Source: Deltaproteobacteria bacterium
Lineage (GTDB): Bacteria; UBA10199; JACPAL01; JACOUP01
Direction: 5' to 3'
Length of the DNA stretch: 64,000 nt
Assembly (NCBI GenBank): GCA_016177765.1
Contig: JACOUP010000008.1
Span: 65,021 to 129,020 of the forward strand
A program made the translations under genes and the position numbers. Below the pieces are notes generated by a model. It was not told the DNA's origin, did no database searches, and saw only the letters and a list, made by a program, of their open reading frames with translations. Positions 10,367 to 56,590 of the stretch are shown here, piece after piece; positions within the stretch are counted from its first letter, which is position 1; each line of letters opens with the position of its first letter.

Positions 10367-10372
10367 CCAAAT

Positions 10373-11725: not shown

Positions 11726-11785
11726 CGGCGAACTGGATCGGCGGGGTTAAAACAATAGTTGCGTAAAAGAAAAAACTTTTCTGGA

Positions 11786-13174: not shown

Positions 13175-13242
13175 TCCGTATCAGATTATCGGTAGAAAAG
13201 AGCTAAAGTTGTGACAGCGCCCCCCCATAACAGCGCGTTGCG

Positions 13243-17565
<4,323 letters not shown>

Positions 17566-17611
17566 AAATACCGCAACCGGTTGTCAGGGCCGTCCGATAA
17601 GCAACCCGCTT

Positions 17612-19471
17612 ATGCCCCCACCGGTCCGCACCATTGAAAGCCGCTTCCTGATCCACCGTCTGGCCGAGGCGACCGGTCTTCCGGAGTCGGATTCCGGCAT
17701 TCAAGACCTTGTTCGTGATCTCGACAGCCTCGATGACCAAATCGACGGGGTCATCCCATACGATCCCGACGACACCTTTTTCATCCCCCTCCCGGAAGAT
17801 CCGAGACAATACGTCCAGGTGAGCCGGACCGCCCTCTTCCGTGGTCTCGTTACCATACGTCTTGGCGGCGAGGGGGTGGATAGCCGGATCATCGAAGGGG
17901 CCTTAGCCGTCCTTCTGGAAGAGATGCCGGATGAGCCGACCGCGGAGGCATTGGCCAGACCGGCAGCTATCGGTGCTGAAATGGCGGCCGGAATCGGGGA
18001 AGAAGCCCATCTCCTGGAGGATGCCTCCCCTTCTAAACCGCCGCCTCCTCCCTGGGGAAGCGCAGCGACATGGGACGAGATCACCGGACTGGTGGTGATT
18101 GGCCTGGAGAGACAATCTGAAGGGACCCTTGTCGTGACCATCCTTTCTCCTTCTGAAGATCTCCCCGGTAAGTTTATCTGGATGGAGACAACTACACGGG
18201 TCTCATCGGTTCATCTGACTTCCGATGGTCAAAGAGCGGTCCTGCGGTTTGACTCTGAAAGAGAGAACCGCAGTTCTCTTGAATACCCCCTGTTCCCGGG
18301 AACCCCCGGCAACGACCTTTTGATCCGAAACGGTGGCGCACTCACCGCCAATGACACCGATCAAACAATGAAACTCCTCGCCTTTGCGGGGGCGGTCAAT
18401 GAGGAACATCTGGCGAGTCTGGATAGCAAGGCCGGTTTTCACCTGAATCCGGACGATCTCTGGCTCAAGGGGCATCATTATGGGAAGGTTGTCTCCATTG
18501 TCCTGATGGCAGAGGAACGGTTCGTCGTCATTGCAGAGCTAAGGCACAGAGGAAAGCTCCTTGTGGTGATGGCGGAACCGGATTCCTTTTCACTGGTCCG
18601 TCTGGACAACGGGTTATGGAGGGTCGAATACCGGATCCTGACCCCTGATGACGCCCCGACAATCACCCAGGGGATTGACCTTCATCCGAAACAGCCGGCT
18701 GTCACGGCCTGGATTCGGGAGGTGGTTGGAGAAGTCAGCGGGTCGGCCGTAGGCGCCGCCTCCTTTCCCCTCTCCCTTGAACAGGCGATTTCCCTTCTGG
18801 AACAGCAACCACTTTCCGCTTTGGAAGAGGCGGCGGTCGGGACAGCCGCGATCAGCGTCGCTACAGAGCTCCAGCGACTGGCCGAGGCAAACCCGGATCT
18901 CCCCCTCAGGGAACTGATTAAAAGACAAACGTTTCCGGAGAGCCCAACCCGGTCCCCACCCCGCAAACCACCCCGCGGCGGCGGTAGCGGACAAGGAGGT
19001 CCGGCCACTCCTGTTTCGGGCGGTTGGGGCAACCCTGTCTACGCTGAACCAGGCAAGTCCCCATTCAAGGCGACCGGTCTTGGCGATATCGCAATGGTTC
19101 TGGCGATCGCCCAGACATTGGACCCAGAGTCCCAGTCGGTCGTCGGGGCGTTCCTTGCCTCCGGTCAGCCGGTACCGAATATTCCGGTTGTCTTTCCCCA
19201 GGAACTTTCGGGAGAAGAACCGCTCGCCGTCGCCGGGCGGGCTGTTGTCCGGATCTTGGCCGATAGCCTGACTTCAAGACCTGCCGATCCCTTTATTATC
19301 GAACGGGTCACAACCGGTCTCCATCGACTCCAGCCTCCCCAAAGGGGGCCTGGCACCCTTTCAAGGCCCGAAAGGGACCGTGCGGTGGAAGAGGCGGTCC
19401 GACGGGGGCCTGCTCCAGGCGGGCCTGCTTTAGCCGGGCCAGCCCGGTTTTTTCGAGCAACTTTCCATTAA
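17612..19471 (+). CDS. Hypothetical P/A/G-rich protein
   Basis: ORF trimmed to the first ATG after the pyrG stop. High GC with low-complexity Pro-rich termini. No family recognised. Confidence 0.4.
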   Translation: MPPPVRTIESRFLIHRLAEATGLPESDSGIQDLVRDLDSLDDQIDGVIPYDPDDTFFIPLPEDPRQYVQVSRTALFRGLVTIRLGGEGVDSRIIEGALAVLLEEMPDEPTAEALARPAAIGAEMAAGIGEEAHLLEDASPSKPPPPPWGSAATWDEITGLVVIGLERQSEGTLVVTILSPSEDLPGKFIWMETTTRVSSVHLTSDGQRAVLRFDSERENRSSLEYPLFPGTPGNDLLIRNGGALTANDTDQTMKLLAFAGAVNEEHLASLDSKAGFHLNPDDLWLKGHHYGKVVSIVLMAEERFVVIAELRHRGKLLVVMAEPDSFSLVRLDNGLWRVEYRILTPDDAPTITQGIDLHPKQPAVTAWIREVVGEVSGSAVGAASFPLSLEQAISLLEQQPLSALEEAAVGTAAISVATELQRLAEANPDLPLRELIKRQTFPESPTRSPPRKPPRGGGSGQGGPATPVSGGWGNPVYAEPGKSPFKATGLGDIAMVLAIAQTLDPESQSVVGAFLASGQPVPNIPVVFPQELSGEEPLAVAGRAVVRILADSLTSRPADPFIIERVTTGLHRLQPPQRGPGTLSRPERDRAVEEAVRRGPAPGGPALAGPARFFRATFH

Positions 19472-19504
19472 CGGGGGCGATAAGAACCCCAAAGCGAAAC
19501 AACC

Positions 19505-21217
19505 ATGGCCCCTCCTGATCCGATCAGTCCCGGCAGTCGTCCCCCTTTTCTTAACGACCCCTTTTTCGCCCGATACCGGGAATCGGTCGCCGCCCGGGAA
19601 TCGATCCTCCACCACACCACGGTTCATGCCCAACAGGTACAGGTCGAATTTTTGGGGGTCATCCATGGTGATTATCGTTTCCGTGAAACCGTTGTCTCCT
19701 CCGAACCGGGGGTCAGTTTTACAAAAACGAACGCCTGGAGCTATGAGGGGTTGCGGTGGCTCCGGCATGCCCCGGACCTCAGTGGGGCCGAGGCGATCTG
19801 CTACGCCGGGGCGGGAATCGCCGCCGTTGGGATCGCCGGCTGGGTCGCGGTGGAAGGGGGAATTGTCACCCTCGCGGCAAAAACCCCTGAAGCGGTGGCC
19901 GCCCTGCAAAAAACCATGATCGCCTATTGGACACAAAAACGGATCATCACGGCAGTCACCGCCGGAGGGGTGAACGTCGTTGTGGGGGAGGCAGTCTCTC
20001 CCCTCTTCGGCCATACGCCCGACGCGCGTGAATCGGTTTTGAATTTTGGTTTCGGGGCCGCCACAGGGCTGGTCTTCCCGCTCCCGGAGCTTGGGCTTCT
20101 GGAAGCGGTCGCCAACCGACAGTGGGTTCCCTATTTCCTGCAAAGTCTGCAAAGGGGGGCCACGCTCCATGGCCCGATGGGGGCGACCTGGTCGGTTGCA
20201 AATCTGGCGACCCATCCGGAACAAGACAGCGGACCGGCAGGTATCGCGAGCCATGCACTCAGCGGGTTTGTGGCCGGGGCCGCCCTCGGCCCGGCCGTGG
20301 ATAATCTCCTCTACGGCATCGGTGCCACCACGAGAAACTTTATCGAGATTGGACCGCCACGGGTTGCCGTCAAGGTCACCTCCGGAAAAACAACCGGGAG
20401 ACAACCTCCCCAAACAGAACCAGAGGGTGTGCCACCCAAGGGGATCTATTTCATGAAATCCCCTCCCTCCGAGTTCTTCAGCAGGGAGGTAGAGGTTGAT
20501 TTTGATCTACTCTTGAGACTCTGCGAAGAGCATGGAGCGGATGGCACTATTAAGGGCATGCTCGAAACCTTTCGAAGCATTGAGTCCGGTAAAAAGATTG
20601 CTGTCCGTGTGGACATGGCCCGCGATGGAACACTTTCTTTCTATCTCCCCAACTTCAGTCAAAGGACCATCCATCTCCCCACAAGAGAATATAGGGCATG
20701 GCGCGAATTTTTTGAGGAGCATACCGGCATTGAATTCCCGAGGGCAGAATCGGGGGTGGCGGAAACGGTCCCCCCCGTTGCCGCTGAGAGAGATACCGTC
20801 CCATTTCAGCCGGGAGAACCCGCCACCCCTCCCTTCACGAGACCCGAAACCGCCGAGCACCCCTCACTAAGAGAACCGCCCGACTTTCCTCCCGGCACAA
20901 CAGCAGTGGTTCCAAGAACAGCCTTTCCAGCCTTTGATGCCACCCCCAGAGATGTGAGGACCCTTGTCACGAATCAAAATCGTCCGATCGGAAAGGCCCT
21001 GGACCTTCTCAAAGGAGATCCTCCTGAATCGTTACTCGCCTTCGATTCCCTCCTGGAACAAGCGATCAAGACCGGGGAAGATCAGTACGCAAAACTCCCG
21101 AACGGCTGGTCGGTCCAGATCACCCGCACCCCGGCTTCAGACCCTATCAGCGCCCCTCCCGGACAATCGGCCGAGCTCCAGCCGGTTCTTCACTTCCAAT
21201 TTTTCATGGAAGATTAA
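19505..21217 (+). CDS. Hypothetical protein (Gly/Ala-rich N-half, Pro-rich C-half); contains repeat-encoded GVPPKG
   Basis: 570-aa ORF. No recognisable domain. Confidence 0.45.
   Translation: MAPPDPISPGSRPPFLNDPFFARYRESVAARESILHHTTVHAQQVQVEFLGVIHGDYRFRETVVSSEPGVSFTKTNAWSYEGLRWLRHAPDLSGAEAICYAGAGIAAVGIAGWVAVEGGIVTLAAKTPEAVAALQKTMIAYWTQKRIITAVTAGGVNVVVGEAVSPLFGHTPDARESVLNFGFGAATGLVFPLPELGLLEAVANRQWVPYFLQSLQRGATLHGPMGATWSVANLATHPEQDSGPAGIASHALSGFVAGAALGPAVDNLLYGIGATTRNFIEIGPPRVAVKVTSGKTTGRQPPQTEPEGVPPKGIYFMKSPPSEFFSREVEVDFDLLLRLCEEHGADGTIKGMLETFRSIESGKKIAVRVDMARDGTLSFYLPNFSQRTIHLPTREYRAWREFFEEHTGIEFPRAESGVAETVPPVAAERDTVPFQPGEPATPPFTRPETAEHPSLREPPDFPPGTTAVVPRTAFPAFDATPRDVRTLVTNQNRPIGKALDLLKGDPPESLLAFDSLLEQAIKTGEDQYAKLPNGWSVQITRTPASDPISAPPGQSAELQPVLHFQFFMED
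20424..20443. repeat. Palindromic repeat copy (aGGGTGtgcCACCCaaGGGG)
   Basis: In-frame in 19505..21217, encoding GVPPKG. Confidence 0.65.
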
Positions 21218-30394: not shown

Positions 30395-31471
30395 GTGAAA
30401 ACAGAAATTTCATCCAGATGGCGTCAATGGTCGATGGGAGCGAGGATCGCTTCACGTCTGGTCCTCGGGAAACCGGTCATCTTCAACCTCAACCTCTACA
30501 CCACCCGCCTCTGCAATCAGCAGTGTCCGATGTGCAACGCTGAACTGGATGTCAATGGCGGACCCAGCATCACGCTGGAGGATTTCAGGTATTACCAGGA
30601 CCAATTAAAAAATTATACGATCCCAACAATCACCTTTTCCGGCGGGGAACCAACCATCGCCCCGGAACTTCCAGATATCATTGAGTACTCGTCGAAACTG
30701 TTTCCGTTCCGGATGGGGATCGTCTCCAACTTTTATGGCCGAAATGACCGGTTCCGTCGCACGATGGACGCCTGTCTGAAATACAATGTCAACATCGGTT
30801 GTTCCTTCGATGGCTTCGGAGAAGTGGCTGACAAACAGCGCGGGGCCAGAAATGTCTCGGAGATCGTTACTGAAAACTTGAAATGGGTCACCGCCCGTAA
30901 AAAGGAGCTCGGGTCAAAAGCCCCTCTGGTCATGAACACCGTCATCAGTGACACCAATCTTTCGCAGGTCATGGAGATTGTCCGGTTCTCCAAGAAACTA
31001 GGCTGGGAACACCGGATCTCCTGCGTTAATCAATTCTACTATTATAAACCGGTTTCCGATTCCCCCACCCTGACCTATAGCCGCGAGCTTTATGAAACAC
31101 TGGTCAAGATTATCAACGAGTCGCACATCCGTCAGAACAGGGGGTTCATCAAGGGGATCGCCCTCTATGCCCAAAAGAAAACGCCTAAATTTTGCCCGTT
31201 CATCACCTGGCCGCTCAAGACCGCCAAGGTTTTTCTGGATCACAACGGGGATATCTCCCTTTGCGACCGTCACCCGATCGGTAATCTTAAAAAGGAAAGT
31301 TTTGAGACCTTGTTACAAACAGCCCTGTACCAAGAAAAACAAAATGACCACGACCGGTGCGAAGGGTGCTGGCTCCCCTGCTTTGTGGAGCCGATCACCT
31401 ACTTGCGTCCGCTAGCAATGAGGAAGGTCTTGAAAGAGTTTGACCGCCTCGCTATTTCCTTGCCTCAATGA
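30395..31471 (+). CDS. Radical SAM protein (CX3CX2C) with a C-terminal Cys-rich auxiliary region
   Basis: LYTTRLCNQQCPMCNA and the glycine-rich SAM motif FSGGEPT. C-terminal cysteines …CDRHP…CEGCWLPCF. Confidence 0.75.
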   Translation: MKTEISSRWRQWSMGARIASRLVLGKPVIFNLNLYTTRLCNQQCPMCNAELDVNGGPSITLEDFRYYQDQLKNYTIPTITFSGGEPTIAPELPDIIEYSSKLFPFRMGIVSNFYGRNDRFRRTMDACLKYNVNIGCSFDGFGEVADKQRGARNVSEIVTENLKWVTARKKELGSKAPLVMNTVISDTNLSQVMEIVRFSKKLGWEHRISCVNQFYYYKPVSDSPTLTYSRELYETLVKIINESHIRQNRGFIKGIALYAQKKTPKFCPFITWPLKTAKVFLDHNGDISLCDRHPIGNLKKESFETLLQTALYQEKQNDHDRCEGCWLPCFVEPITYLRPLAMRKVLKEFDRLAISLPQ

Positions 31472-32139
31472 TCCCCTACCGAAGTTCCCAAAAGAGAAAG
31501 GGGTATGCCACCCGAACGTTTCCCTGGGTCACTGTGGCCCTGATTCTGATGAATGTCGCTGTTTTTTTCTATGAGGTCACCCTTCCGGCCGCTCAACTGA
31601 AAGACTTTTTTAAAACCTTTGCCCTCGTCCCGGGCCATTTTCGGCCTCTGGGGTTGATCACCGGGCTCTTTCTTCATGGCGGGTGGCTCCACCTTATCGC
31701 CAACATGCTCTACCTCTGGGTCTTTGGAGACAACGTCGAGGAAAAAATGGGACGCCATTCCTTCCTCAATTTTTACCTCGCCTCCGGCATCATTTCTTTC
31801 CTTGCTCAGGTCGCCTTTGACCCCGGCTCCAGCCTTCCCCTGATCGGTGCCAGCGGGGCGATCGCCGGAATTCTGGGGATCTACCTCCGGCTTTTCCCAA
31901 AGTCACACGTCACCGTCCTTGTCCCGATCTTCATTTTCTTAAGACGAATGATCCTCCCGGCGTGGCTGGTCCTCGGTTTCTGGTTTGTCCTCCAATTATT
32001 GGAAGGATTGCTCTCTCTCCAACAGTTGGAGGCTGGAGCGGCCTCTTCAGGGGGGATCGCCTTTTTTGCCCATATTGGCGGGTTTTTGTTTGGGATTCTC
32101 GTCGGGCCATTGTTTGTAAAAAGAAAAAAACGGGGCTAA
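31468..32139 (+). CDS. Rhomboid-family intramembrane serine protease
   Basis: GASGAIAGILG (the GxSG active site), a downstream AHIGGF histidine, and a 6-TM profile. ATGA-type overlap with the previous gene. Confidence 0.8.
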   Translation: MIPYRSSQKRKGYATRTFPWVTVALILMNVAVFFYEVTLPAAQLKDFFKTFALVPGHFRPLGLITGLFLHGGWLHLIANMLYLWVFGDNVEEKMGRHSFLNFYLASGIISFLAQVAFDPGSSLPLIGASGAIAGILGIYLRLFPKSHVTVLVPIFIFLRRMILPAWLVLGFWFVLQLLEGLLSLQQLEAGAASSGGIAFFAHIGGFLFGILVGPLFVKRKKRG

Positions 32140-32190
32140 CTTTAATCTGGTCTTGCATGCCTCCTGACCCGCGTTGTAAGAGGAGTCAAA

Positions 32191-33624
32191 ATGCCTCTAA
32201 AACTGACCGCCTACCCCACCCCCTTTCTGGAATACCGGGGGATTTTGACCCTTTGCCGTAAACTTAAAAAAGAAAGGCCCGGCCGTAAAATCGGTATTAT
32301 CCTGCCGGATGGAGAAGAAAGGAATCTCCCTCCCCATCGGTGGCTCCCAGCGATCCTGAAGGGGAACCGGCAGGAAGCGGTTGAGGATTTGAGCTCCCTC
32401 ACCTTTGGTCAACCAGTCCCTGAAGAGATTGAAGTCATTCTTTTTCCCTCCCTCACCACCCCCCCCTACCCCAAAGACAAGGAAAAGACTTCACCCCCCT
32501 GGTTTCAAGAACTGCTCCAGTCCAACAGGGAGTTTTATGGCTCCTACCCCCTGATGGACTCCCTGGGGCGCGAGGTGGAGAAGTCACCGTGGCTCGAGGG
32601 TGGTTCACCCAAGGAAAGTGAATTTGAATCCCATCTGGAATCCCCCGACCTGACCAAAATCCCATTTCATCCCGGTCCAAACCTCCGTTCTCCAAAGGCC
32701 CTGGCCCTTCTCAAGGGAGAGCTGGACCAGCACCATTTCTCCGCTACTGAACTGGAGAGTTACCAGAATTCCCCCTTTCAACATTTCGCCAAATATCTGC
32801 TGAAATTAAAGCCGGTCAAGGAGCGAACACCGGAATTGGACCCGGGGGTTCAGGGAAAGCTGATCCATCACCTGCTGGAAGTCCTCTTTTCAAAAATGGG
32901 ACCGGAAATGAAAGGAACCTCTCAAGAGAAAAACGATGATCTTGCGGTCCGTGGAATCAAGCTGGTTTGCGAGGAATTGAACCGTCAGGAAAAGGAGCTG
33001 GGGCTCCGTCGTTCCCAACTCTGGGAACACCGAAAAAGGAGGATTCTGAGGGCCATCGAAACTTTCTTCAAGGAAGAACTCGTCCGGTTGCAGGAGGGAA
33101 ATCAGAGACTGATCCCGAACCATTTTGAATGGCGTTTTGGCCAAAAGGAACCGTATCTCTTCCCGACGGAGGGCGGCGCTGTTCCACTGACCGGTGTAGT
33201 CGATCGGATCGACATCGATCTGGAGAAAAAACGGTTTCTGGTACTGGATTACAAGACAGGTTCAAAGACGGTTTCCCTGCGAGAGTTCGAGGCAGGGCGG
33301 GCATTGCAGCTCCCACTCTATGTTGCCGCCGTCTCCTCACTGCTCCTGAAGGATCACCAACCGATCGGCGGTGTTCTCTGCAGGCTTCACGACCTGACAC
33401 GCAAAGAGGGCTTTGTCAAAATAGAGGATTCTGAAAAATACCACTGCCTCGACTCCCGTTCACAGGCGGCTGTTTCCGAACAGGAGTGGGAGGGGATCCT
33501 CATCAAAACAGCCAAGACGGTCTCCAAGATCGTCGCCGGGATGAAAAAGGGAGATTTCCCCCAGCAGGCCGAGGAGTGTGAAGAATTTTGTGAGTTCCGG
33601 GATATCTGTCGGTGCGGGACGTAA
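32191..33624 (+). CDS. PD-(D/E)xK nuclease with C-terminal Fe-S Cys cluster (AddB/Cas4-like, no helicase-like N-domain)
   Basis: …GVVDRIDIDLEKKRFLVLDYKTG… is the D…D/E-x-K nuclease core. The C-terminus CEEFCEFRDICRC plus earlier cysteines match AddB/Cas4-type staple clusters. Confidence 0.55.
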   Translation: MPLKLTAYPTPFLEYRGILTLCRKLKKERPGRKIGIILPDGEERNLPPHRWLPAILKGNRQEAVEDLSSLTFGQPVPEEIEVILFPSLTTPPYPKDKEKTSPPWFQELLQSNREFYGSYPLMDSLGREVEKSPWLEGGSPKESEFESHLESPDLTKIPFHPGPNLRSPKALALLKGELDQHHFSATELESYQNSPFQHFAKYLLKLKPVKERTPELDPGVQGKLIHHLLEVLFSKMGPEMKGTSQEKNDDLAVRGIKLVCEELNRQEKELGLRRSQLWEHRKRRILRAIETFFKEELVRLQEGNQRLIPNHFEWRFGQKEPYLFPTEGGAVPLTGVVDRIDIDLEKKRFLVLDYKTGSKTVSLREFEAGRALQLPLYVAAVSSLLLKDHQPIGGVLCRLHDLTRKEGFVKIEDSEKYHCLDSRSQAAVSEQEWEGILIKTAKTVSKIVAGMKKGDFPQQAEECEEFCEFRDICRCGT

Positions 33625-33630
33625 AAAAAT

Positions 33631-35661
33631 ATGCCTTTGACTCTAGACCAGGAAACAGCCATTTCAGTCAGCGACACTAACGTCATCCTGATCGCCTCCG
33701 CCGGTTCCGGCAAGACCTCCGTCCTGGTAGAAAAATACGCGGCCCTTTTGGGGCAAGTGGAGCCGCAGAATATCCTGGCAATCACCTTCACCGAAAAAGC
33801 GGCCAAGGAACTAAAAAACAGGATCCAGAAAAAACTGGGGTTGGCACCGGGAACTCTGGACCAGACCGTTATCAACACCTTTCACGGCTTCTGCGCCGAT
33901 CTCCTGAAGGAAAAAGAAGAGATCAAAATCATGGATGAACACCTGACCACGGCCGTTCAGGCACAACTGATTCATGACGGTCTCCTCACCCTCCTCGAAG
34001 AGGAAGAACCGTCGACCATCCGGATGATCGCCGAATTCGGTTTTCATCGAACCCACAACCTCCTCCTCACCGCCTTTGACGAGTCCTACAACCTGCGACA
34101 CTGGTGGTCCCAAAAAAAAGAAGATCTCCGGGAAGACCCGCTCATCGTTCCCTTTTTCGAACTCTTCGAAAAAATCCATCACCGCTACCAATTAGAGAAA
34201 AAAGGGAAAGGGCTTTCCGATTTTGACGACCTGGAGGAAAAAATAATCCATCTGCTGGAAACCAACGTTCCAGAAAGGGAAAAACTCCAGAACCGGTTCC
34301 GCTTCATCCTGGTGGATGAATTCCAGGATACCAGCCCGATCCAGACGCGACTTCTCGATCTCCTGCACCAGTCCGGCAAGAATCTCCTCTTTGCCGTCGG
34401 CGATCCTAAACAGTCAATCTATCAGTTCCGCGGTGCCGATCTCAGTCTCTTCAAAGAGAAGATCCGACAAATCAAAAATGGGGAGGGAAAAATACTCTAC
34501 CTCCGTGATAATTTCCGCTCTTCACCCGCCTTGATCGAACCGATCAACCGCTTTTTTGAAAAAGTCCTTCCCCCGGAAGATTTTCAACCGATGCTCCCCC
34601 GAAGCGAGAAGGAGGGACTGGGGATCCAGACGCTCCCGCTGATAGAGGTCCAAAGCGCCTCCGAAAGACGGCTTCAGGAGGCAGGAGCCATCGCCTCAAA
34701 AATCATCGAACTCCGTCAAGAAAAAAGAGATTTCCGGGAAATGGTCTGTCTCTTCCGGACACGAACAGCGATCCCTCTCTTTGAAAAGGTCTTCCAGGAG
34801 CACCAGATCCCCTGCCATGCCGTTTCCAGAGGGGCTCTTTTCGAGGCCCAAGAGGTCCTTGACCTCGTTAACCTCCTCAAGGTGATCGCCAATCCCAATG
34901 ATACCCTTTCCCTCGTCGGGGTCCTGCGCTCCCCCCTCTTCGGCCTGACCGATGAGGAGATCTTTCTTGGGTGGCACACCCTTGGGTGGCACACCCTTGA
35001 ACAAAGAGCAGGGACACTCCTGAAAAAATATCACTTTGCCAAAGAGCTCAATCAATGGTCCAAAAACAAAACCATCAGTGCCCTTCTTCTCCACCTCTGT
35101 GAACTCTCATTTTTGGAGAAACTCTTCCGGACAGCTCAGGAGACCGCCAATCTCGAACGGCTGATCGCCCTGGCAGAGTCGTTTGAGGCGCTTGGCGTCA
35201 CCACCCTGGCACAATTTCTCACCACCGTCGAGGCGCTCCGGGAGGCCGGCACCCGGATCCCGGAGGCCTCACTCTTCGCCCCGAGCGCCAACTGCGTCCG
35301 ACTGATGACCGTTCATGCCTCAAAAGGCCTTGAATTTCCTATAGTTTTTATGACAGACCTCTCGTACCGACCGAGGACCGATTCACCGCTCTTCCAGTTC
35401 CATCCGCAAAAAGGGATCGGCTTCAAACACCTTTCGGAAGATTCCCAAGGACTCAAGGATCACTTTGAAAAGAGCCCTGAATATGAGAGATTGGAAGAAG
35501 AAAAAAAGAAGAAGGGAAAGGAGGAATCGATGCGACTCCTGTATGTTGCCATGACGCGGGCCCAGGAGGGACTCTTTCTCCCACTCACGCCGATCAACGG
35601 CAATAAAAAGGGGATCACTTGGAACGACCTTCTGGTCCCCTTATTTCTGGACAAGGGATGA
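33631..35661 (+). CDS. UvrD/Rep/AddA-like SF1 helicase (no nuclease domain), with in-frame repeat insert LGWHTLGWHTL
   Basis: Walker A SAGSGKT, motif II FILVDEFQDT, and motif V/VI VHASKGLEFPIVFM. Confidence 0.8.
   Translation: MPLTLDQETAISVSDTNVILIASAGSGKTSVLVEKYAALLGQVEPQNILAITFTEKAAKELKNRIQKKLGLAPGTLDQTVINTFHGFCADLLKEKEEIKIMDEHLTTAVQAQLIHDGLLTLLEEEEPSTIRMIAEFGFHRTHNLLLTAFDESYNLRHWWSQKKEDLREDPLIVPFFELFEKIHHRYQLEKKGKGLSDFDDLEEKIIHLLETNVPEREKLQNRFRFILVDEFQDTSPIQTRLLDLLHQSGKNLLFAVGDPKQSIYQFRGADLSLFKEKIRQIKNGEGKILYLRDNFRSSPALIEPINRFFEKVLPPEDFQPMLPRSEKEGLGIQTLPLIEVQSASERRLQEAGAIASKIIELRQEKRDFREMVCLFRTRTAIPLFEKVFQEHQIPCHAVSRGALFEAQEVLDLVNLLKVIANPNDTLSLVGVLRSPLFGLTDEEIFLGWHTLGWHTLEQRAGTLLKKYHFAKELNQWSKNKTISALLLHLCELSFLEKLFRTAQETANLERLIALAESFEALGVTTLAQFLTTVEALREAGTRIPEASLFAPSANCVRLMTVHASKGLEFPIVFMTDLSYRPRTDSPLFQFHPQKGIGFKHLSEDSQGLKDHFEKSPEYERLEEEKKKKGKEESMRLLYVAMTRAQEGLFLPLTPINGNKKGITWNDLLVPLFLDKG
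34966..34999. repeat. Palindromic repeat copy, ~2.3 units, GGTGGCACACCC variant, third reading frame
   Basis: cttGGGTGgcaCACCCttGGGTGgcaCACCCttg, in-frame in the helicase, encoding LGWHTLGWHTL. The TGG variant removes the TGA that the canonical unit carries in this frame. Confidence 0.85.
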
Positions 35662-38168
35662 TCCCTTCCCTTCCTAAAGAGCTTCTGGATCAAGCCGCTT
35701 CCCCACGGGAGGCAGGGCACTTTTTTTCGGCCTGGTTCACAGCCTACCGTCAGGAAAGGGGAAATCCGCCTGATTTAAAACATCCCTCGGGCTCAAAAAT
35801 CCTTTCCCTCTTTGGGAATTCGGCATGGCTTTCCCAATTCCTCGGCAATCACCCCCTTCTCTACGATTCCCTCGGTTCCTCCCCCTTCCTCACCAAAAGA
35901 AAAGGCCTGGAAGACCACCGGGAGGACCTTCGACAAGTCCCCAAGGGTGATTCACCCAAGGGTGTGCCACCCAAGGGCGATTCGCCCACGGGCGACTTTC
36001 ATTCAAACCTCCTCCTCTATAAAAACAGCGAGCTTTTAAGGATCGCCCTCCGTTCTCTTGAAATCGGCTCTTCTGAAGAAGAAATCGGTCACGAACTTTC
36101 CGACCTGGCCCAAGCGATTGTCGAAAAGGCCCATCAGGTGCTGGGAGCCATTCATCAACGGGAATTGGGTCTTCGAAAAATTCCCCTCTGTTGCCTCGGT
36201 CTTGGAAAACTGGGAGGCCAGGACCTCAATTTCAGCTCCGACATTGATCTCCTCTACCTCTATGGTGACGATGAAGAACGAGGCTCTGAACTCTCCACCC
36301 ACGAATACTTTGTGAAGCGGGTTGAAAGAGAACGGCATTTCCTGAGCGACAAGACCGATTCTTTCCTCTATCGCGTCGATCTGGATCTTCGTCCGGAAGG
36401 GAAAAAAGGGACGCTTGTCAATTCACTCCCCGCCCTCGAAGAGTATTACGAAACCTGGGGGGCGGAATGGGAGAGAATCGCCCTCATCAAGGGACGATGC
36501 CTCGCCGGTGACAAGCCACTGGCCGAAAAATTCATCAAGATGGCCCACCCCTTTGTCTGGCGGAAAAGCTTCGAAGACTCCGCCTTGAACCAGATCAAGA
36601 CAATCAAGGAGAAAAGTGATGCCCTTTTGAGAAAAAAAGTCGTTCCCACTTTTCATGTCAAACTCGGGAGCGGCGGAATCCGGGAAGTCGAACTATTCGT
36701 CTGGATTTTTCAGTTGATCTTTGGCGGCCGCCACCCGCAACTCCAGGAAGCCCATACCCTTCAAGCCCTTCGCCAGCTCAAGGCCCTCTCCCTCATCCCC
36801 GCCAGGGAGACCAAACAGTTGGAAAAGGCCTATCTTTTCCTGCGGCGGATAGAAAACCGACTGCAAATGCAAGAGAACCAGCAAATTCATCAGATTCCGG
36901 AATCAGCCGAGGGACAGGAGGCCCTCGCCCGTCTCCTCGGTTACCCCCAGGAAACACGAAAAGCGGCCCGCAAGGCTTTCTTGGAAGACCTCGAACAAAC
37001 ACGGACCTATGTTCAAAAACATTTCGCCAGTCTCTTTGAAAGAGGACCTAAAAAACAACGCTCCTGGAAGGAAGAGCAGACGCTCAGGCTCCAGTCAGAA
37101 TTGGAGCCGCTACCGACTGTTGAAGAAAAATTCGACAGCCTGCGCCTCTTTAAAAAAGAGGTGACCGGTGAAATCATTCAGGAAGACCAATCGGGAAAAC
37201 TTTCTTTTACGAACTTTCTTGTCAGAAATACAGAACTGGCCGAGGTGATCCTCCAGGAGGCCTATCAGATCGCCCTTGCCGAAATGGCCGCCCGCTATGG
37301 TCCCCTGAAGGGAGAGGGACTCGCCATTATCGGCATGGGAAAGCTGGGGGGAAGAGAGTTGACTTACCGGTCGGACCTGGACCTCCAATTCCTCTATGAC
37401 GAAAATTCCTACAACAAAACCCTGTCCCTTCAGGAATATTTTGCAAAACTCGCTCAGAGGGTCCTCTCTTGTCTGACAATCATCACCGAACAGGGATGGG
37501 CCTACAAGATCGACACCGCCCTCCGTCCTTCGGGAAGCGCCGGTGTCCTTGTCGGTTCACTGGCCTCTTTTCTGGAATACCACGAAAAAGAGTCAAAAAC
37601 CTGGGAAAAACAGGCCCTTCTCAAGGCGAGACCGGTTGCCGGCGACCCTTTTCTTTGTGACAAGGCCGCCGTTTTTCTGAAAGGGATCCCGTTCCGCTTT
37701 CCCCCCTCCCCTTCCCTCCTCCAGGATATCGCCTCTCTCCGGACCCGGATGGAAAGAGAGATTGCCAGAGAGACCGAGTCATCCTGGAATTTGAAGACAG
37801 GATACGGCGGTATTGTGGATATTGAATTTCTGACACAAGGCCTGCAACTCCTTCATGGACGGGATTTTAGTGAATTGGCGGAGCCCAATACGCTCCTGGC
37901 CCTTGAAAAACTCTCAGGACTCCAATTTCTCACTCCCCAGGAGACCAATGACTTGAAGGAAGGGTACCAATTCCTCCGCCGTCTGGAAACCGCACTCCGG
38001 CTCCAATTGGAGAGCCCCACCGATTGTCTTGAATTAACCGCTCCCTGGCTCCCCACGATGGCAACAGCCCTCAATTTTTCTTCAGCAACGGCACTTGTCG
38101 ACGCGGCCCGCTCCTGGAGGAAAAAAATTCGCGGCCTTTATGAAGGGGTGTTTGGAAGTCGGGGCTAG
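35658..38168 (+). CDS. glnE: Bifunctional glutamine synthetase adenylyltransferase/adenylyl-removing enzyme
   Basis: Two nucleotidyltransferase modules (GLGKLGGQDLNFSSDIDLLYLY and IGMGKLGGRELTYRSDLDLQFLY). The N-terminal region contains 3.5 tandem repeat units. ATGA overlap with the helicase stop. Confidence 0.85.
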   Translation: MIPSLPKELLDQAASPREAGHFFSAWFTAYRQERGNPPDLKHPSGSKILSLFGNSAWLSQFLGNHPLLYDSLGSSPFLTKRKGLEDHREDLRQVPKGDSPKGVPPKGDSPTGDFHSNLLLYKNSELLRIALRSLEIGSSEEEIGHELSDLAQAIVEKAHQVLGAIHQRELGLRKIPLCCLGLGKLGGQDLNFSSDIDLLYLYGDDEERGSELSTHEYFVKRVERERHFLSDKTDSFLYRVDLDLRPEGKKGTLVNSLPALEEYYETWGAEWERIALIKGRCLAGDKPLAEKFIKMAHPFVWRKSFEDSALNQIKTIKEKSDALLRKKVVPTFHVKLGSGGIREVELFVWIFQLIFGGRHPQLQEAHTLQALRQLKALSLIPARETKQLEKAYLFLRRIENRLQMQENQQIHQIPESAEGQEALARLLGYPQETRKAARKAFLEDLEQTRTYVQKHFASLFERGPKKQRSWKEEQTLRLQSELEPLPTVEEKFDSLRLFKKEVTGEIIQEDQSGKLSFTNFLVRNTELAEVILQEAYQIALAEMAARYGPLKGEGLAIIGMGKLGGRELTYRSDLDLQFLYDENSYNKTLSLQEYFAKLAQRVLSCLTIITEQGWAYKIDTALRPSGSAGVLVGSLASFLEYHEKESKTWEKQALLKARPVAGDPFLCDKAAVFLKGIPFRFPPSPSLLQDIASLRTRMEREIARETESSWNLKTGYGGIVDIEFLTQGLQLLHGRDFSELAEPNTLLALEKLSGLQFLTPQETNDLKEGYQFLRRLETALRLQLESPTDCLELTAPWLPTMATALNFSSATALVDAARSWRKKIRGLYEGVFGSRG
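35939..35994. repeat. Palindromic repeat copy, ~3.5 units, in glnE
   Basis: ccaaGGGTGattCACCCaaGGGTGtgcCACCCaaGGGCGattCGCCCacGGGCG encodes PKGDSPKGVPPKGDSPTGD. Confidence 0.9.
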
Positions 38169-44850: not shown

Positions 44851-46242
44851 TTATGAAATCGCCTGACTGCGGATCAAGGATGGCTTTCTGGGAAGGGTAA
44901 AGTAAAACTCACTTCCAAAACCAACCTGGGACTCAACCCAGATACGACCGCCATGGAGCTCCACGATCTTCTTGGCCACGGCCAGTCCAAGACCGGCACC
45001 TGCCGCACCCCCCCTCTGGAGGGTTTCTCCGGCCTGCCCAAATTCCTCAAAAATCTTCTGCCGATCTTCGGGAAAAATTCCGCGTCCCGTGTCTTTGACA
45101 CAAAATTTGACCATCTCCCCTGCTTTTTCCGTACGGACTTCAATCGTCCCCCGCTCCGTATGCTGAACCGCATTCTCCAGAATCCTTCTTAACAGATCTG
45201 AAATCAATTCCTCATCACCGTAAACCCAAGTGGATTGGAGTTTTTGAAACCATCGTATTCCCCTTTCCTTCATCTGCGGCTTTAGAGAAAGAAGAACTTC
45301 GTTTAAGAGACGGGCCAGATCCATTTTTTTGATCGGCATCTCCCGGGAGGTTTTCTCGATCGATGAAATATTCAAAATAGTCTCAATAATGCCCAAAAGC
45401 CTTTGCCCTGCTTCCCGCACCATCTGCAAATGACCCTTCTGTCCTTCCGTCACCGGTCCGTCAATCCCTTCCGCCATTGCCTGGGCAAGACCGATAATGT
45501 TGTGGAGGGGGGTGGTTAATTCGTGGGTGGTGCTGGCGAGAAAACCGTTTTTGAGTTGGGAGAGTTCCTTGAGACGGGTGTTCTGTCTTAAGATTTCTTC
45601 ATAGAGAAAGGCATTTTCGATGGAGATGGTAATCTCTTGCGACAGGAGCAAAAGCAGGTCCCGATCTTCTTCGTCATAATCCACCTCTCTGCGGCCAAGA
45701 CTGATCAATCCGAAAAGACCCGAGGCGTGATCCGCCCGAGGACGGATCAAAGGGACAAGGATCTCCGCTTGAAGTTCCATGTAGAGCCGCAAGGCGGCGC
45801 TTCGGAGATCACTAAAAAGAGCCTCTCCGGTCATTTCCTCCTTTTGGAGCGGTCTGCCCCATTGGGCCAGTTTTTTAAGAAAGGGGTGATCGATCGGGAT
45901 GCAGTAGGAAAGGGGGGAACGGATCACCGCCGCCTTCAGGACAAACTGGCCTGTGGTCTCATCTCTCAGGAGAAGAGCCGCCCCCTGGGCATTGAACAGG
46001 CGACGGAGCGTCTCGGTAACCCTCGTAAACAGTTCTGACGGTTTTTGGAGAGAACGAATCGGGGAAAACGAGTCGCGAAAGACCTTTTTGTAATCGTGTT
46101 TTTCCCGTTGGGTGATCCTTGTTAAAATTCTCCGTAGGGCCACGTTGGTCGTATTGTAATGGAAAAAGAAGGAGGCCGCAAACTTAAAACTACTGGCAGT
46201 TGTCTTGACCGGACTGGTAACAGAACTCCAGGTCGAAACCAA
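44851..46242 (-). CDS. Sensor histidine kinase with N-terminal GAF-like domain (no adjacent response regulator)
   Basis: H-box HELTTPLHNIIGLAQAM and an HATPase_c domain with N/G1/G2 boxes (…GRGIFPED…GAGLGLAVAKK…). The start is uncertain; the tracked ORF overlaps the next gene by 52 bp. Confidence 0.7.
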   Translation of the reverse strand: MVSTWSSVTSPVKTTASSFKFAASFFFHYNTTNVALRRILTRITQREKHDYKKVFRDSFSPIRSLQKPSELFTRVTETLRRLFNAQGAALLLRDETTGQFVLKAAVIRSPLSYCIPIDHPFLKKLAQWGRPLQKEEMTGEALFSDLRSAALRLYMELQAEILVPLIRPRADHASGLFGLISLGRREVDYDEEDRDLLLLLSQEITISIENAFLYEEILRQNTRLKELSQLKNGFLASTTHELTTPLHNIIGLAQAMAEGIDGPVTEGQKGHLQMVREAGQRLLGIIETILNISSIEKTSREMPIKKMDLARLLNEVLLSLKPQMKERGIRWFQKLQSTWVYGDEELISDLLRRILENAVQHTERGTIEVRTEKAGEMVKFCVKDTGRGIFPEDRQKIFEEFGQAGETLQRGGAAGAGLGLAVAKKIVELHGGRIWVESQVGFGSEFYFTLPRKPSLIRSQAIS

Positions 46243-49200
46243 GCCCCAGGGATCGTGGGGCGAAGGGGGTCATTTCAATAACAGGGGTGTGGATTTCGAC
46301 ATCCAGGATATTGAATTTTTCAAGGTTGTCGATCAGCTCCTCATTATCCTTGACCGTCTGGGAGACCTCTTCACCATGCTCTATAGCATCCAACCGGTCG
46401 TCACCGGTTGTTTCCCGGAGCTCGTCGATCGGGCGTGAGGGGATATTGACCTTGATCGTCTTCGGCTTTCCAATCGTGAGTGTCGAGAGGGCTGAATTAA
46501 TCTTGTCCGTAACCCCTTGAGAAACCTGATGATCCGAATACAGGGAATTATTAGAACGGATCAAATTTCCACGGGTATCGACCGTATCCTCAATGAGGGA
46601 TAATTTGAGATACGATTTTTCCTTGTCTGTAGTCAATGACGAAGCCCCAGGGACGGTTGCCAAGCCCGCTACCAACTCATACTCACCGTCTCTATTGGGA
46701 GTCGTCACCATCTGCAGGGTGAAAGTCAATTTTCCGGAAAGCGAGAATCGGGCCAGCGGCTTTTTCCCTTCTTCATGCTGGCACTCTGCCAGTTCGCTCA
46801 AGGCCTCGACACCTTGATGGCACCAGGAGAGCTTCATCCCGGTCCCATCCTCTTCAAAAACGGAAAGGATCGCGTTGGAGAGACCAACCTCAAGCTGGGC
46901 AGTGATCACCGGGGGGACCCCAGAACCGGTGTCGTGGGCGTCGGAACTGTTCAATAGTTTGGCAGTGATTCCTAGCCGGGGGTTCAGTGAAAGATGGAGA
47001 AGGAGCGGCGTCTGACCATCCTTCTCATCGGCAACAGCCCCGTCACCGTTAAAATCGATATCCGGAAACGCATTGGTTCCCAACACCTGCTCAATATTCA
47101 GGTCCAGTGGGAAACAAGGGGCCTTGTCCACACAACGACAGCTGTCCGGATCAATCACCTTGCCGTTGCGACAGCTCTTCTCACCGCAATTCGGGGCCGA
47201 ATAGCGAAAGAGAGTTCCCTCTTTAACAATAAATCCCTCTTCCTCATCCCGAACGCGACCCTCTTTGTCGCGGCAAACCTTGCCTGCTTCTTCATAGTCA
47301 TTCACGGCCTGGTCAAAATCATCCCTCAATTTTTTCTTGCTGATGTCCAGGAACGTCGGGTCATCCTTATCCACCTGGTAAAGAGCGGTGTTCACGGTAT
47401 GCAGGACCATGTTCAAGGCCTCTTCATTGAGACTGATCCCCAGTTCCCGACCAAGGTCGCGGAGGGCATCAGGTGGCTGTTGGGCCAGACGGTTGGCCTT
47501 GGGTTCCTCATAGAGGGGACCAAAGGTGCCCAGATTGCCAAAGCCTTCCCGTCGGAGGCGTGAGGCCAGCCCTTCCATGAAGGTCTTGGCATCCTTTTCG
47601 GTCGTATCCCCTTCGTCATAGACACCGGCCGGCAGGATCAAGGCAGGGGCCGACAAACCAAGCCCCCCTCGGGTAGAAACAGGGTCTCCCGGCGGGATCA
47701 CCCTCACCTCACTCGCCATAAAATCGGAGTAGAGGTCAAAGAAAAACTCCTTGCCAAGCCCCTTGAACGAGAACTGCTGGACCCGGTCGGTCTTGAACCG
47801 ACCCATCGACTGAGACAGGCGGTTGGGGACGTTACAGGTCAGCATATTTTCCAGGGTTGATTTCAGTTGTTGCCAGGCATGTTGGTTCAGGCAGGTGGTA
47901 TCCAGTCCGGAATTGTTCAGGCCGGCATCCAGTCTTTGCAGGGCACGACATTGACGCCGATTAATCGGTTGATGAGTACCGTTTTCATCCGGGGTCAGCA
48001 TTTTAGGACGATCACAATCAAAGGCGATGGGACGATGCTCCAACCCCTGAAAGGAAACAATCGGCCAGCCCCCCCCTTCATCGACAATCTGATTAATCTT
48101 TGGCTTGATCCTCCCCCCTTCTTTGGCCAATTCCAGTTCCAGATTGAGCGTCAACCCCGTCAGCTGGACCTTGATCGGTATTGGGCCGACATCCAGACAG
48201 CGGTCACCCACAATCCGTCCCCCCTGTCGGTAGAGACTCCCTCCCCTTAAGGATGAGTCATAAGACTTCCCCTTGATATTATCGTAGTCGTCATCCATTT
48301 TCTGACCATCGGCATCAAGCGGGGCAGTGCACTTCTGACCCCCGGCCCCCTCCGTAGTCCCCTTGTCATCACAAAGACCGTCATTATCATCATCAATATC
48401 GGTTCCCGGATCGGCACGACCATCCCCATCGGTGTCGTCAAACATCATCGTAAACATATCTCCCCTCGCCTCTAAACGATCCAAATTGAGGGTCAGCCAG
48501 ACCCTGTTCCGATTCAGGAGATAGAGACTACGAATCTTAAAATTGCCAACAGTCGGGTATTGGTCACGATCGGTCAGCGGGTAGAGTTTGAAGGTTTTCA
48601 CAAAATCCTGCGTGGTATCGTCGTACGGATCATGATCATTCCCCTGGCACTGCAACACCTCGGAAGCCATTGGCTGGACCGGATCGAACACCTTCAAGAA
48701 GGTCTCCTGCTTGAATTCATCGGAGTTTAAGACCTTCTCAAGGGCTGACTTCAGGTCACCATCTCCATTCCCCTCAATAAATGGTTGGGAGATAAAGGCG
48801 GAAAGGGAGCGTTGGAGCTGTTGCCCGGCAACAGTGCCATCTTCGTTGAGGAGACTGTGGATCTTTCCGAGACCAAAAGACTCGGTCTTTTCCGTCAGGT
48901 TGCCACACTGATCATAGGCGTTGAAGGTGACGGTTGTCACCGGAAACCCAAAATTCTTTCTGCCGAGCCGGGCCTGAAAATGCCCATTCCCCTCCACACG
49001 ACACATCCCGGTCAAGAGCTGTTGAAGAGTCCCGTCCCCCCCCTTTTTCTGTCTATTCCCCTTCTGGAGACAAATAGTATTGGGGACAACGGCAGCCCCA
49101 GGGATATTGGGGCAGTCGTCTTTATCGGACCGGGTGTCATTCAGACAATCTTCAGGGGCTATCGGAAAATCGGTCTCGGTGGAACCGTTCAGGCATTTTT

Positions 49201-50365: not shown

Positions 50366-50383
50366 AGTAGATCTCATGCCTCG

Positions 50384-51568
50384 TTATTCCGAAACCTTTT
50401 TCCAAACGTAAATGACCCCGTCTTTGGCATATTCAAGGGCAACGGCGCTCAGAGCGCCCGTCGCACCGATCATCGCCGCATCATAATTTCTGTGGTCTCC
50501 TTCAGCGACGGCCACCGCCACAACAGCCGCCCCAAAAACGGTCAGGCGGGTGGCATGTTTGTTATTACCCCCAGTGATGACATCGGCAACACCGCCGGCA
50601 AATACCGGTACCGCCTGAGCTAACGCGGCATCAGCCGCTGGGCCGTCTGAAGCAAGCCCATAAACAATCTGGGCCCCGTTTTTGACCCCAACAACAGCCC
50701 AGGTAACCAGCCGACCCTCCTCCCAGCTCCCTTCCATCGCCTCTAACTCCGCCTCAACCCCGGGGCGGCTGGCGAGAACTCCCTCAAGGACGGCTAATTT
50801 AGAGGCGTCGGGGGCAAAGGCGCCGATCTCTCGTGTGTCCGCGACCCCTTGGGCTACCCGATGCACCACCATGGCAGAAACCAGCGACCGGGCGTAGAGA
50901 TGGGAGAGTTCCCTGAAACTGAGGACCCCTCCCCTCTTCCCTGCCGCTTCAGTCGCTTGACCAGCGTTGAAATCACCACCCGCGGTTAACATAAAAGTAG
51001 TGTCTCGAGTGGGAAGCCGGTCCGCATAAGGGGCATCCGCATGCCGGATGGGAGTTTCGGTGAGAAGTTCAGCCCCCACGTAGGGAGAAACCCCACCTAG
51101 TTCGGGCCCCCTCAACTGATAGCCAGAACTAAGCATAGCAGAGACAACCCCGGTGTCTCCTACCTCTGTTCGGTACGCCCCCCAGGCGAGCCGTGCCGAG
51201 TCGGTCCCGTCCAGATGAACGATACCTCTAAAATTCCCCACTGGGGTGGCCCGGTTCGATCCCAAGACGCCCCGGATTTCTGGTTTAGCCTCGAGGCCAC
51301 GGATATTGCCCCTCCGATCGGTCACAGGGAAGGAACTGAGGTCCCCCCCCGGTTTCACCTGGAGCCGAACATCAAAACCGGTCCTCTCTTCACAACTGCC
51401 AATCCTGGCACCGATATCAACGGGAATAAATCCAGGTTCGGTAAGCGCGGCAACGGTGGCATTTCCTTTGGCCTCGGACCCTGCCATCGAACCAAAAAAA
51501 CCGGCCGCGGTTTCTCTCATGAAACCACCGCCGCTATACTCCAGTCTCTGAACGCAAGGCCAACCCAT
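50384..51568 (-). CDS. Hypothetical Gly/Ala-rich protein, translationally coupled to the upstream gene
   Basis: 394-aa ORF whose start abuts the stop of 51569..52435. No recognisable family. Confidence 0.45.
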   Translation of the reverse strand: MGWPCVQRLEYSGGGFMRETAAGFFGSMAGSEAKGNATVAALTEPGFIPVDIGARIGSCEERTGFDVRLQVKPGGDLSSFPVTDRRGNIRGLEAKPEIRGVLGSNRATPVGNFRGIVHLDGTDSARLAWGAYRTEVGDTGVVSAMLSSGYQLRGPELGGVSPYVGAELLTETPIRHADAPYADRLPTRDTTFMLTAGGDFNAGQATEAAGKRGGVLSFRELSHLYARSLVSAMVVHRVAQGVADTREIGAFAPDASKLAVLEGVLASRPGVEAELEAMEGSWEEGRLVTWAVVGVKNGAQIVYGLASDGPAADAALAQAVPVFAGGVADVITGGNNKHATRLTVFGAAVVAVAVAEGDHRNYDAAMIGATGALSAVALEYAKDGVIYVWKKVSE

Positions 51569-52435: not shown

Positions 52436-52494
52436 TGAACTTCCCCCCTCTACTCAGAATTATCGGTACCCTCATGAAAAGGTTGCCCTCAAAA

Positions 52495-56550: not shown

Positions 56551-56590
56551 CACCCTTTTTATCGGTGAGGTCTTACAAAAGGTTGCTCGT

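Follow-up and report, generated by a model that had tools for sequence, protein, structure and literature searches.

AddAB and RecBCD are the textbook cases of Chi-regulated processing of DNA breaks. A pair of small genes in a 64,000-nucleotide stretch of DNA from a Deltaproteobacteria bacterium (contig JACOUP010000008.1, positions 65,021 to 129,020; "the window" below, with coordinates counted from its first letter) raises the question of whether such a machine can occur in a much reduced form. The genes encode a nuclease of 477 amino acids (aa) and a helicase of 676 aa. A preliminary description had proposed that they form a mini-AddAB-like or a defence-type module. The first half of this proposal stood, on the basis of NCBIfam matches, positional orthology and co-occurrence of the two short forms. 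The second half did not: the surroundings are of the housekeeping kind, the PADLOC matches are generic, and the searched phage and plasmid collections hold no close relative.

Very probably, the helicase is an AddA-lineage superfamily 1A (SF1A) 3'-5' motor without its C-terminal RecB-type nuclease and, jointly, the nuclease derives from an AddB by loss of subdomains 1A, 1B and 2B, with a 2A stub and the complete iron-sulfur (Fe-S) nuclease domain retained. We favour, as the probable origin of the pair, positional and evolutionary descent from addB-addA, with reduction to a minimal two-subunit DNA-end-processing enzyme. This identity is based on the family matches, on the positional orthology, and on the finding that a short B gene is found with a nuclease-less A gene. 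The two open reading frames are separated by 6 bp.

32191-33624, + strand: probable mini-AddB gene, 477-aa AddB-type Fe-S PD-(D/E)xK nuclease subunit (NCBI MBI1909100.1)
33631-35661, + strand: probable mini-AddA gene, 676-aa SF1A helicase without a nuclease domain (NCBI MBI1909101.1)

Their current NCBI annotations are 'PD-(D/E)XK nuclease family protein' and 'UvrD-helicase domain-containing protein', respectively.

The nuclease subunit

The 477-aa protein matched PF12705 (PDDEXK_1) over residues 182-474 with 122.6 bits. The features assigned to it, by gene coordinates, were as follows.

32191-32601, + strand: remnant of the AddB inactivated-helicase 2A (RecA-like) domain, residues 1-137, without the 2B insertion and without 1A/1B
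32722-33621, + strand: AddB-type RecB-family nuclease domain, residues 178-477, with a three-helix insertion at residues 218-302
33202-33255, + strand: catalytic motif D338-R-I-D341 ... D353-Y-K355, present in 143 of 143 relatives
33307-33321, + strand: Q373-x3-Y377 motif of RecB-family nucleases, kept in 141 of 143 relatives

Residues 338-357 read DRIDIDLEKKRFLVLDYKTG. In the alignment of the 143 relatives, E313, D338, D341, D353 and K355 were identical throughout, and G222, H226, Q373 and Y377 were each retained in all but two. D353 aligned with D961 of Bacillus subtilis AddB, the residue that is Ala in the crystallised mutant. Because the catalytic residues are kept across this alignment, the active site looks intact, and the PD-(D/E)xK core named in the preliminary description is borne out.

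The best NCBIfam matches of the nuclease were AddB families and TIGR03623. All were weak and far under their cut-offs: addB_Gpos scored 61.7 (cut-off 903.7) and addB_alphas 50.6 (cut-off 486.5). An AlphaFold2 model built on the 143-sequence alignment had a predicted local distance difference test score (pLDDT) of 89.4 and a predicted template modelling score (pTM) of 0.82; an earlier model from four sequences had reached a pLDDT of only 51.8. Searched at full length, the predicted fold had AddB as its best structural match, followed by RecC (distant, E 3e-6). In the same model, the fold of the nuclease domain also resembled AdnA and Dna2.

The preliminary description held that AddB's large N-terminal region is missing. 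This is so for 1A, 1B and 2B, which are absent from the 477-aa protein; the N-terminal 180 residues nevertheless hold a remnant of 2A and are not an unrelated leader. Profile-profile alignment placed residues 67-137 on residues 325-424 of a 795-aa AddB (locus L018, below) with 96% probability and an E value of 3e-9. The aligned part of L018 belongs to the helicase-like 2A domain, at its motif V/VI-like end. HMMER set 'SYPLMDSLG..' opposite 'VSYPIADAEGK' of B. subtilis AddB residues 664-687 at a sub-threshold score, and a Pfam scan of the isolated 180 residues gave no match, ADDB_N included, so that it is the profile-profile alignment that assigns the stub to 2A. In the window's clade, the stub carries two strongly conserved stretches, 'YPTPFLE' and 'SYPLMDSLG.E..PWL'. 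On sequence grounds, we read the protein as a 2A-like stub (~135-137 residues, no 2B insertion), a linker, and the AddB nuclease domain, the stub being all that is left of the inactivated helicase. Syntenic relatives of 291-327 aa begin directly at the nuclease domain; the stub is therefore dispensable in the family.

A split AddB, with an ADDB_N fragment encoded upstream, was ruled out for the window: the upstream gene is that of a rhomboid protease, and tblastn found no AddB N-terminal match in the window. Such an arrangement occurs at L020 (1663-7155), where AddB is present as two open reading frames, ADDB_N of 331 aa and PDDEXK_1 of 462 aa; the next gene encodes a full AddA of 1010 aa, nuclease included. 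The split could reflect a frameshift, an error of assembly, or a naturally occurring intermediate with the AddB halves made as separate proteins.

The Fe-S site

The ligands of the 4Fe-4S cluster of B. subtilis AddB are C801, C1121, C1124 and C1130 (PMC3321194). In the 477-aa protein, the corresponding features are the following.

33577-33615, + strand: Cys cluster C463-x3-C467-x5-C473-x-C475, putative 4Fe-4S ligands
32770-32772, + strand: codon of S194, in the column of the first AddB Fe-S ligand Cys (C801 in B. subtilis) in the alignments

The C-terminal Cys cluster of the preliminary description is thus present. C463, C467 and C473 were retained in 134-141 of the 143 relatives and C475 in only 10. 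The C801 column holds Cys in 126 relatives, Ser in 13 and Ala in 2. The Ser is found mostly in forms of 460-560 aa, the window clade included. Among the 15 relatives with Ser or Ala in this column, every full-length one except P0257 has an extra Cys elsewhere: at the 'CRC' position of C475 (33613-33615), about 7 residues further along the N-terminal helix, or just before the C-terminal triad. In the 477-aa protein, the candidate fourth ligands are C475 and the invariant C419. The fourth cluster ligand may therefore have migrated in Ser194-type proteins, to judge from these substitutions.

The helicase subunit

The 676-aa protein contained the Pfam domains UvrD-helicase and UvrD_C, and all seven SF1 motifs were intact and conserved in 13 orthologues or relatives. 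The following two were located in the gene.

33694-33717, + strand: helicase motif I (Walker A), ASAGSGKT
34312-34329, + strand: helicase motif II, VDEFQD

As the preliminary description had stated, the helicase has no nuclease domain. PF12705 was not found in it, and its match to the NCBIfam AddA model stops at ~876 of 1234 model positions. With full AddA proteins as queries, tblastn matched up to residue ~816 only; elsewhere in the 64-kb window, no AddA or AddB fragments were found. Among NCBIfam models, addA_Gpos was the best for the helicase with 311.9 bits (cut-off 707.65), as compared with 229 for pcrA and 198 for uvrD. A sequence search of the PDB gave AddA (3u44_A) as the best match, with 174 bits. 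The nearest homologues beyond the protein's own small family, at 30-36% identity, were mixed: some are proteins of 620-700 aa without a nuclease, and others are AddA proteins of 855-1180 aa with PF12705. The nearest of the non-family homologues were AddA proteins with PF12705.

The helicase gene also contains a perfect 15-bp tandem duplication at 34969-34998 (GGGTGGCACACCCTT twice), which encodes GWHTLGWHTL at residues 447-456. The duplication lies in a variable region and was absent from all relatives examined.

Conserved neighbourhood and co-loss

Close relatives of the nuclease are few (74%, 52% and 43% identity) and all metagenomic. Two of these relatives, those at 52% and 43%, lie on contigs (L013 and L014) that also carry the pair, despite different downstream genes. 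A word-index homology search with the nuclease gave 5 matches and the profile version 22; an exhaustive HMMER search gave 18,322, of which the best 150 fell into length classes of ~300, 460-560, 750-925 and >1000 aa.

A recurrent gene order was found in related contigs: rhomboid - B - A - glnE - gshA - dksA - dciA - DUF1015, in which B and A are the nuclease and helicase genes. The loci in this neighbourhood were as follows.

L015: 299-aa nuclease and 621-aa helicase, conserved neighbourhood
L021: 291-aa nuclease and 620-aa helicase, conserved neighbourhood
L022: 327-aa nuclease and 673-aa helicase, conserved neighbourhood
L024: nuclease cut by the contig end and 638-aa helicase, conserved neighbourhood
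L025: 559-aa nuclease and 684-aa helicase, conserved neighbourhood
L026: 479-aa nuclease and 682-aa helicase, conserved neighbourhood
L018/L019 (Deltaproteobacteria bacterium RIFCSPLOWO2_12_FULL_44_12): 795-818-aa AddB with ADDB_N and 971-aa AddA with PDDEXK_1, before gshA - dksA - dciA

The rhomboid gene is the upstream neighbour also in L013, L015, L021 and L022, and glnE the downstream neighbour also in L015, L022, L024, L025 and L026. Synteny of the pair holds across lineages at 30-60% identity. Because the mini pairs and the fuller AddB-AddA pairs have a common neighbourhood, with gshA - dksA - dciA downstream, they are positional orthologues.

The preliminary description regarded the order of nuclease then helicase as unusual. 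It is the normal one, since canonical addB-addA loci share it: a scan of genome contigs gave seven canonical Firmicutes/Planctomycetota loci, each with an AddB of 1139-1239 aa followed by an AddA of 1245-1289 aa, and L018 has the same order.

The survey of gene neighbourhoods linked the short nuclease to a nuclease-less helicase. Pairs were counted at loci with both genes complete, with loci from the metagenome scan included. A B protein of at most 682 aa always occurred with an A protein of at most 699 aa lacking PF12705, in 14 clean pairs and in L043, where A is possibly disrupted. A B protein of at least 795 aa always occurred with an A protein of at least 966 aa, in about 16 loci; PF12705 in these long A proteins was verified with Pfam in six loci and inferred from length in the rest. 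The contexts of ten other nuclease-less AddA-like helicases were inspected, and in all ten, as in the window, a PDDEXK_1 gene (or a contig-cut, unscored one) lay just upstream. The divergence of the nuclease and that of the helicase track each other across orthologues. The AddB lengths form a reduction series of 795, ~680, ~550, ~470 and ~300 aa, and the smallest pair is a 291-aa nuclease with a 620-aa helicase.

The gap between mini-B and mini-A was -25 to +8 bp in seven measured pairs, the window included; from coordinates, the genes overlap by ~10 bp in L025 and ~4 bp in L026. This tight spacing fails in L027 and in a second nuclease-less clade, in which a B protein of 669-682 aa is followed by an HU gene and then an A protein of 688-699 aa. 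The 91-aa HU (Bac_DNA_binding) gene lies between B and the helicase at L016 (5579-5854) and L023 (4617-4892), and L039 and L088 have comparable B/A gaps of ~420-430 bp. At L027 (5977-12165), ~3.4 kb lies between the genes for a mini-AddB of 296 aa and a nuclease-less helicase of 626 aa.

In a rough neighbour-joining distance tree of 118 helicase cores, the window clade stood beside a nuclease-less group of 613-673 aa, and both adjoined short AddA proteins of 891-1002 aa. The HU-type nuclease-less clade was separate. Since the nuclease-less helicases form two clades in this tree, it suggests that the AddA nuclease was lost at least twice.

Among loci L041-L058 and ~25 further metagenome loci, for many AddB-like open reading frames of ~1050 aa no AddA-like helicase was detected within 6 kb downstream on the same strand. 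Either the partner is too divergent for the threshold of the helicase hidden Markov model, or it is encoded elsewhere.

Proposed mechanism

The AddAB of B. subtilis provides the frame for the mechanism. Its AddA motor tracks 3'-5' along the 3' strand, and this strand passes the inactivated helicase of AddB, the Chi locus, and then the AddA nuclease; cleavage of the 3' strand falls to the AddA nuclease and that of the 5' strand to the AddB nuclease (PMC3321194). Subdomains 1A, 1B and 2B of AddB form the Chi-recognition locus. The short 5'-channel comprises no more than the AddB nuclease and the Fe-S region (PMC3321194). Contact with the duplex end is made by the AddB nuclease domain together with the Fe-S loop, and the AddA-AddB interface consists mainly of 2B-2B contacts and a six-helix bundle of both linkers (PMC3321194). 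AddA alone is a 3'-5' helicase; end targeting requires AddB, and end binding requires the Fe-S cluster (PMC3064778).

In the mini pair, the nuclease and the helicase would associate as a heterodimer. The duplex end would be bound by the AddB-type Fe-S nuclease domain, the AddA-type motor would move 3'-5' on the 3'-ended strand, unwinding the duplex, and the AddB-type nuclease would cleave the displaced 5'-ended strand. The 3' strand would be neither degraded nor scanned, because the whole downstream '3'-channel', that is, the Chi scanner and the AddA nuclease, is gone. The enzyme would thus make a 3' single-stranded DNA tail constitutively and independently of Chi, for the loading of RecA by other factors. 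We grade this mechanism as one joint proposal, in which the formation of a complex, the polarity of cutting, the independence from Chi and the part played in double-strand-break repair are all inferred, and consider the chances for and against it to be balanced. A broader claim, that a hard-wired, Chi-independent resection machine with a single motor and a single nuclease has replaced AddAB lineage-wide, the '3'-channel' having been deleted as a co-evolving unit at least twice, is put forward more tentatively, at slightly worse than even chances.

Several points weigh against the descent of the pair from AddB-AddA and the mechanism derived from it. The main weakness is that the 2B subdomain of AddB and the linker of AddA, both parts of the B. 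subtilis interface, are missing; what points to a complex, indirectly, is the tight coupling of the two genes. That the 5' strand would be the one cut is an extrapolation from B. subtilis. Neither subunit attains the NCBIfam equivalog cut-offs for AddA or AddB, and the 174 bits of the helicase against AddA in the PDB barely exceed those against PcrA (166) and UvrD (164). The canonical first Fe-S ligand is Ser in the nuclease, and the putative cluster needs an assumed replacement, C475 or C419. Finally, the search for a second AddA or AddB covered the 64-kb window only.

Alternative explanations

The closeness of the helicase to PcrA and UvrD in the PDB search would also suit a housekeeping UvrD/PcrA-type helicase paired with an exonuclease of the Dna2/Cas4-like kind that processes 5' flaps or forks. 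Jointly or each alone, they would act in a pathway other than the resection of double-strand-break ends: excision repair, mismatch repair or the processing of replication forks. This is unlikely: among the family models, AddA leads for the helicase by more than 70 bits, the nearest helicase homologues outside the family are AddA proteins with nuclease domains, the pair is positionally orthologous to AddB-AddA, and the full-length structural best match of the predicted nuclease model is AddB, then RecC. If the pair is instead a reduced AddAB as we propose, its missing functions could be supplied in trans, with a 3'-strand nuclease and/or Chi-like control provided by an unlinked protein and regulation retained. 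The conserved 2A-like stub of the window's clade could dock such a factor or contact single-stranded DNA, and the conserved neighbours are not all explained; close syntenic relatives with nucleases of 291-327 aa nevertheless have no stub, and beside the pair there is no conserved candidate partner, only metabolic or membrane genes. We regard supply in trans as quite improbable.

Both proteins are shorter than canonical AddA and AddB, and the window takes in 64 kb from a contig that is at least 1.36 Mb long, which leaves room for a full AddAB encoded elsewhere in the genome, of which the pair would be decaying remnants, that is, degraded duplicates or pseudogenes. Such decay is very improbable. 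Both frames are intact; the catalytic, Fe-S (three of the four canonical ligands) and helicase motifs are conserved down to ~30% identity; the short architecture persists across many contigs and no fewer than two clades; and the pair occupies the neighbourhood, upstream of gshA - dksA - dciA, in which relatives hold a fuller AddBA, with no other AddA or AddB fragments in the window. An anti-phage defence helicase-nuclease module, Gabija-like or of the UvrD-Cas4 type, would account for the PADLOC matches of the helicase to GajB and DRT-associated helicase models (E 1e-52 to 9e-58) and for the marginal matches of the nuclease to Cas4 models (E 0.004-0.006), and fusions of UvrD with Cas4 have been described in defence contexts (PMC5704561). 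The helicase matches are those of a generic UvrD fold, however, and no GajA/OLD-type partner, restriction-modification, CRISPR, cas or other defence gene was found among the annotated neighbours. The defence-island screen of the neighbourhood returned rhomboid, radical SAM, glnE, phoU, purine and PTS genes, a housekeeping set conserved across lineages, and the cross-lineage synteny at 30-60% identity is unlike that of mobile defence islands. Searches of phage and plasmid collections with tblastn gave no close relative, only weak partial matches of 24-33% identity, for which the sole overlapping feature annotated as AddB sits on an S. aureus record; the GC content is uniform across the 64,000 nucleotides. 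A defence module was rejected on the neighbourhood, the PADLOC results and the phage and plasmid searches, and is barely credible. The pair looks like a housekeeping repair module.

Comparison with known systems

The pair resembles AddAB (RexAB), of which that of B. subtilis (PDB 3U44/4CEI) is the reference, in having adjacent genes in one operon in the order addB then addA, an SF1A motor with all motifs, and a PD-(D/E)xK nuclease whose C-terminal part carries a Cys cluster. It differs in that B. subtilis AddA has 1232 aa and a C-terminal nuclease, as opposed to 676 aa without one, and B. subtilis AddB has 1166 aa and a four-subdomain, Chi-reading inactivated helicase, as opposed to 477 aa with a 2A stub. 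Of the AddAB iron staple, the three C-terminal Cys are present (C463, C467 and C473), and the N-terminal Cys position is Ser194. The pair is not a plain member of AddAB, because it lacks the AddA nuclease and the Chi-scanning pseudo-helicase of AddB and stays below the family cut-offs.

The short AddBA of L018/L019 shares gshA - dksA - dciA downstream and includes helicases that, at 35% identity, come closest outside the mini family; its nuclease domain is 30% identical to that of the window nuclease, and the 1B arm is already short in AddA of this type. Unlike the window pair, L018/L019 kept ADDB_N in AddB and PDDEXK_1 in AddA. The AddA of Thermus thermophilus, 857 aa long (PMC9751324), is also counted here as a short AddA, by length alone.

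The predicted output of the mini pair, namely unwinding, cleavage of the 5' strand alone and an intact 3' tail, would be like that of AddAB whose AddA nuclease is dead or of AddAB after Chi. These forms go back to Yeeles and Dillingham (2007), as cited in PMC3064778 and PMC3321194. The pair would be their natural equivalent, with the difference that they are an engineered or Chi-switched full complex with a Chi scanner, whereas the mini pair would be hard-wired.

RecBCD consists of RecB (helicase and nuclease), RecC and RecD (an SF1B motor); the mini pair has no RecD/SF1B gene adjacent, and its score against the recB model was 239.8 (cut-off 696). In mycobacterial AdnAB, AdnA and AdnB each combine a helicase-like domain with a nuclease, unlike the mini pair, which has one of each on separate subunits. 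Dna2 differs in having its own SF1B motor fused in cis. Unlike the Fe-S nucleases of the Cas4/ACE1 family, the mini pair has no CRISPR or Argonaute context, and its Cas4 model match is marginal. The resemblance to Gabija is confined to the GajB-model match of the helicase, the partner being a PDDEXK_1 protein and not GajA (ATPase-TOPRIM/OLD).

Operons of unfused UvrD and Cas4-like (pfam12705) genes have been noted in some Clostridiales, as non-defence systems with a possible role in repair (Hudaiberdiev et al. 2017, PMC5704561). Like the mini pair, they have separate genes for an SF1 helicase and a PF12705 nuclease in one predicted operon; they come from a different lineage, the likeness is by description only, and neither AddBA descent nor co-loss is described there. 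The literature searched contained no description of a pair of nuclease-less AddA and mini-AddB, this remark on Clostridiales being the nearest.

Genomic context

The immediate surroundings of the pair comprised the following features.

31468-32139, + strand: rhomboid protease gene, context only, conserved upstream neighbour of mini pairs
32180-32185, + strand: Shine-Dalgarno-like GAGGAG, 5 nt before the nuclease ATG, from the sequence itself
35658-38168, + strand: glnE, context only, whose likely ATG overlaps the helicase stop codon (ATGA)

Because GAGGAG precedes the nuclease ATG and glnE begins at the helicase stop codon, the nuclease, helicase and glnE genes are probably co-transcribed and translationally coupled. 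Upstream lie genes for an NTP-transferase, an LPG-synthase-like protein, a radical SAM/SPASM protein and the rhomboid protease; downstream are glnE, phoU and DUF1015 and, further out, genes for purine biosynthesis, CTP synthase, sigma-54, HPr kinase and PtsI. An Rfam scan of the whole 64 kb gave no family at the gathering threshold and no tRNA, rRNA or riboswitch.

glnE is a single gene of 835-849 aa in the window and L026. It is present as two adjacent open reading frames (~430 and ~360 aa, each GlnE + GlnD_UR_UTase) at L015 (7853-10254), L022 (4162-6532), L024 (2662-5081) and L025 (8670-11203). An RmuC-family (DNA recombination-associated) gene lies at 58847-59911 on the - strand of the window, 23 kb past the pair and beside a kinase/pyrophosphorylase gene; it showed no connection with the pair. 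Three regions of the window contain large open reading frames without a Pfam match (E<=1e-5): 46190-56613 on the - strand (1395, 394, 288 and 1372 aa), 9272-15777 (364, 450, 462 and 844 aa) and 17438-21217 (677 and 570 aa).

Implications

The components of the pair are themselves familiar and their function is inferred; what is informative, and testable, is the pattern of co-loss together with the reduction series. A natural series of progressively reduced AddBA pairs amounts to an evolutionary dissection of the machine. Because loss of the AddB scanner always accompanies loss of the AddA nuclease, the series suggests a single functional module, discardable as a whole, that comprises the Chi scanner and the 3'-strand nuclease, and an irreducible core that comprises the motor and the Fe-S 5'-nuclease. 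The relocated Fe-S ligand, if such it is, would be a natural experiment on the 'iron staple'. The proteins are small and probably tractable, which would suit structural or single-molecule studies of how ends are recognised and the 5' strand resected, and the mini pairs provide a test case for bacterial recombination without Chi. If the proposal is true, Chi regulation and 3'-strand degradation would be dispensable for a cellular AddAB-type enzyme, the minimal core of which would be a motor and an Fe-S 5'-nuclease.

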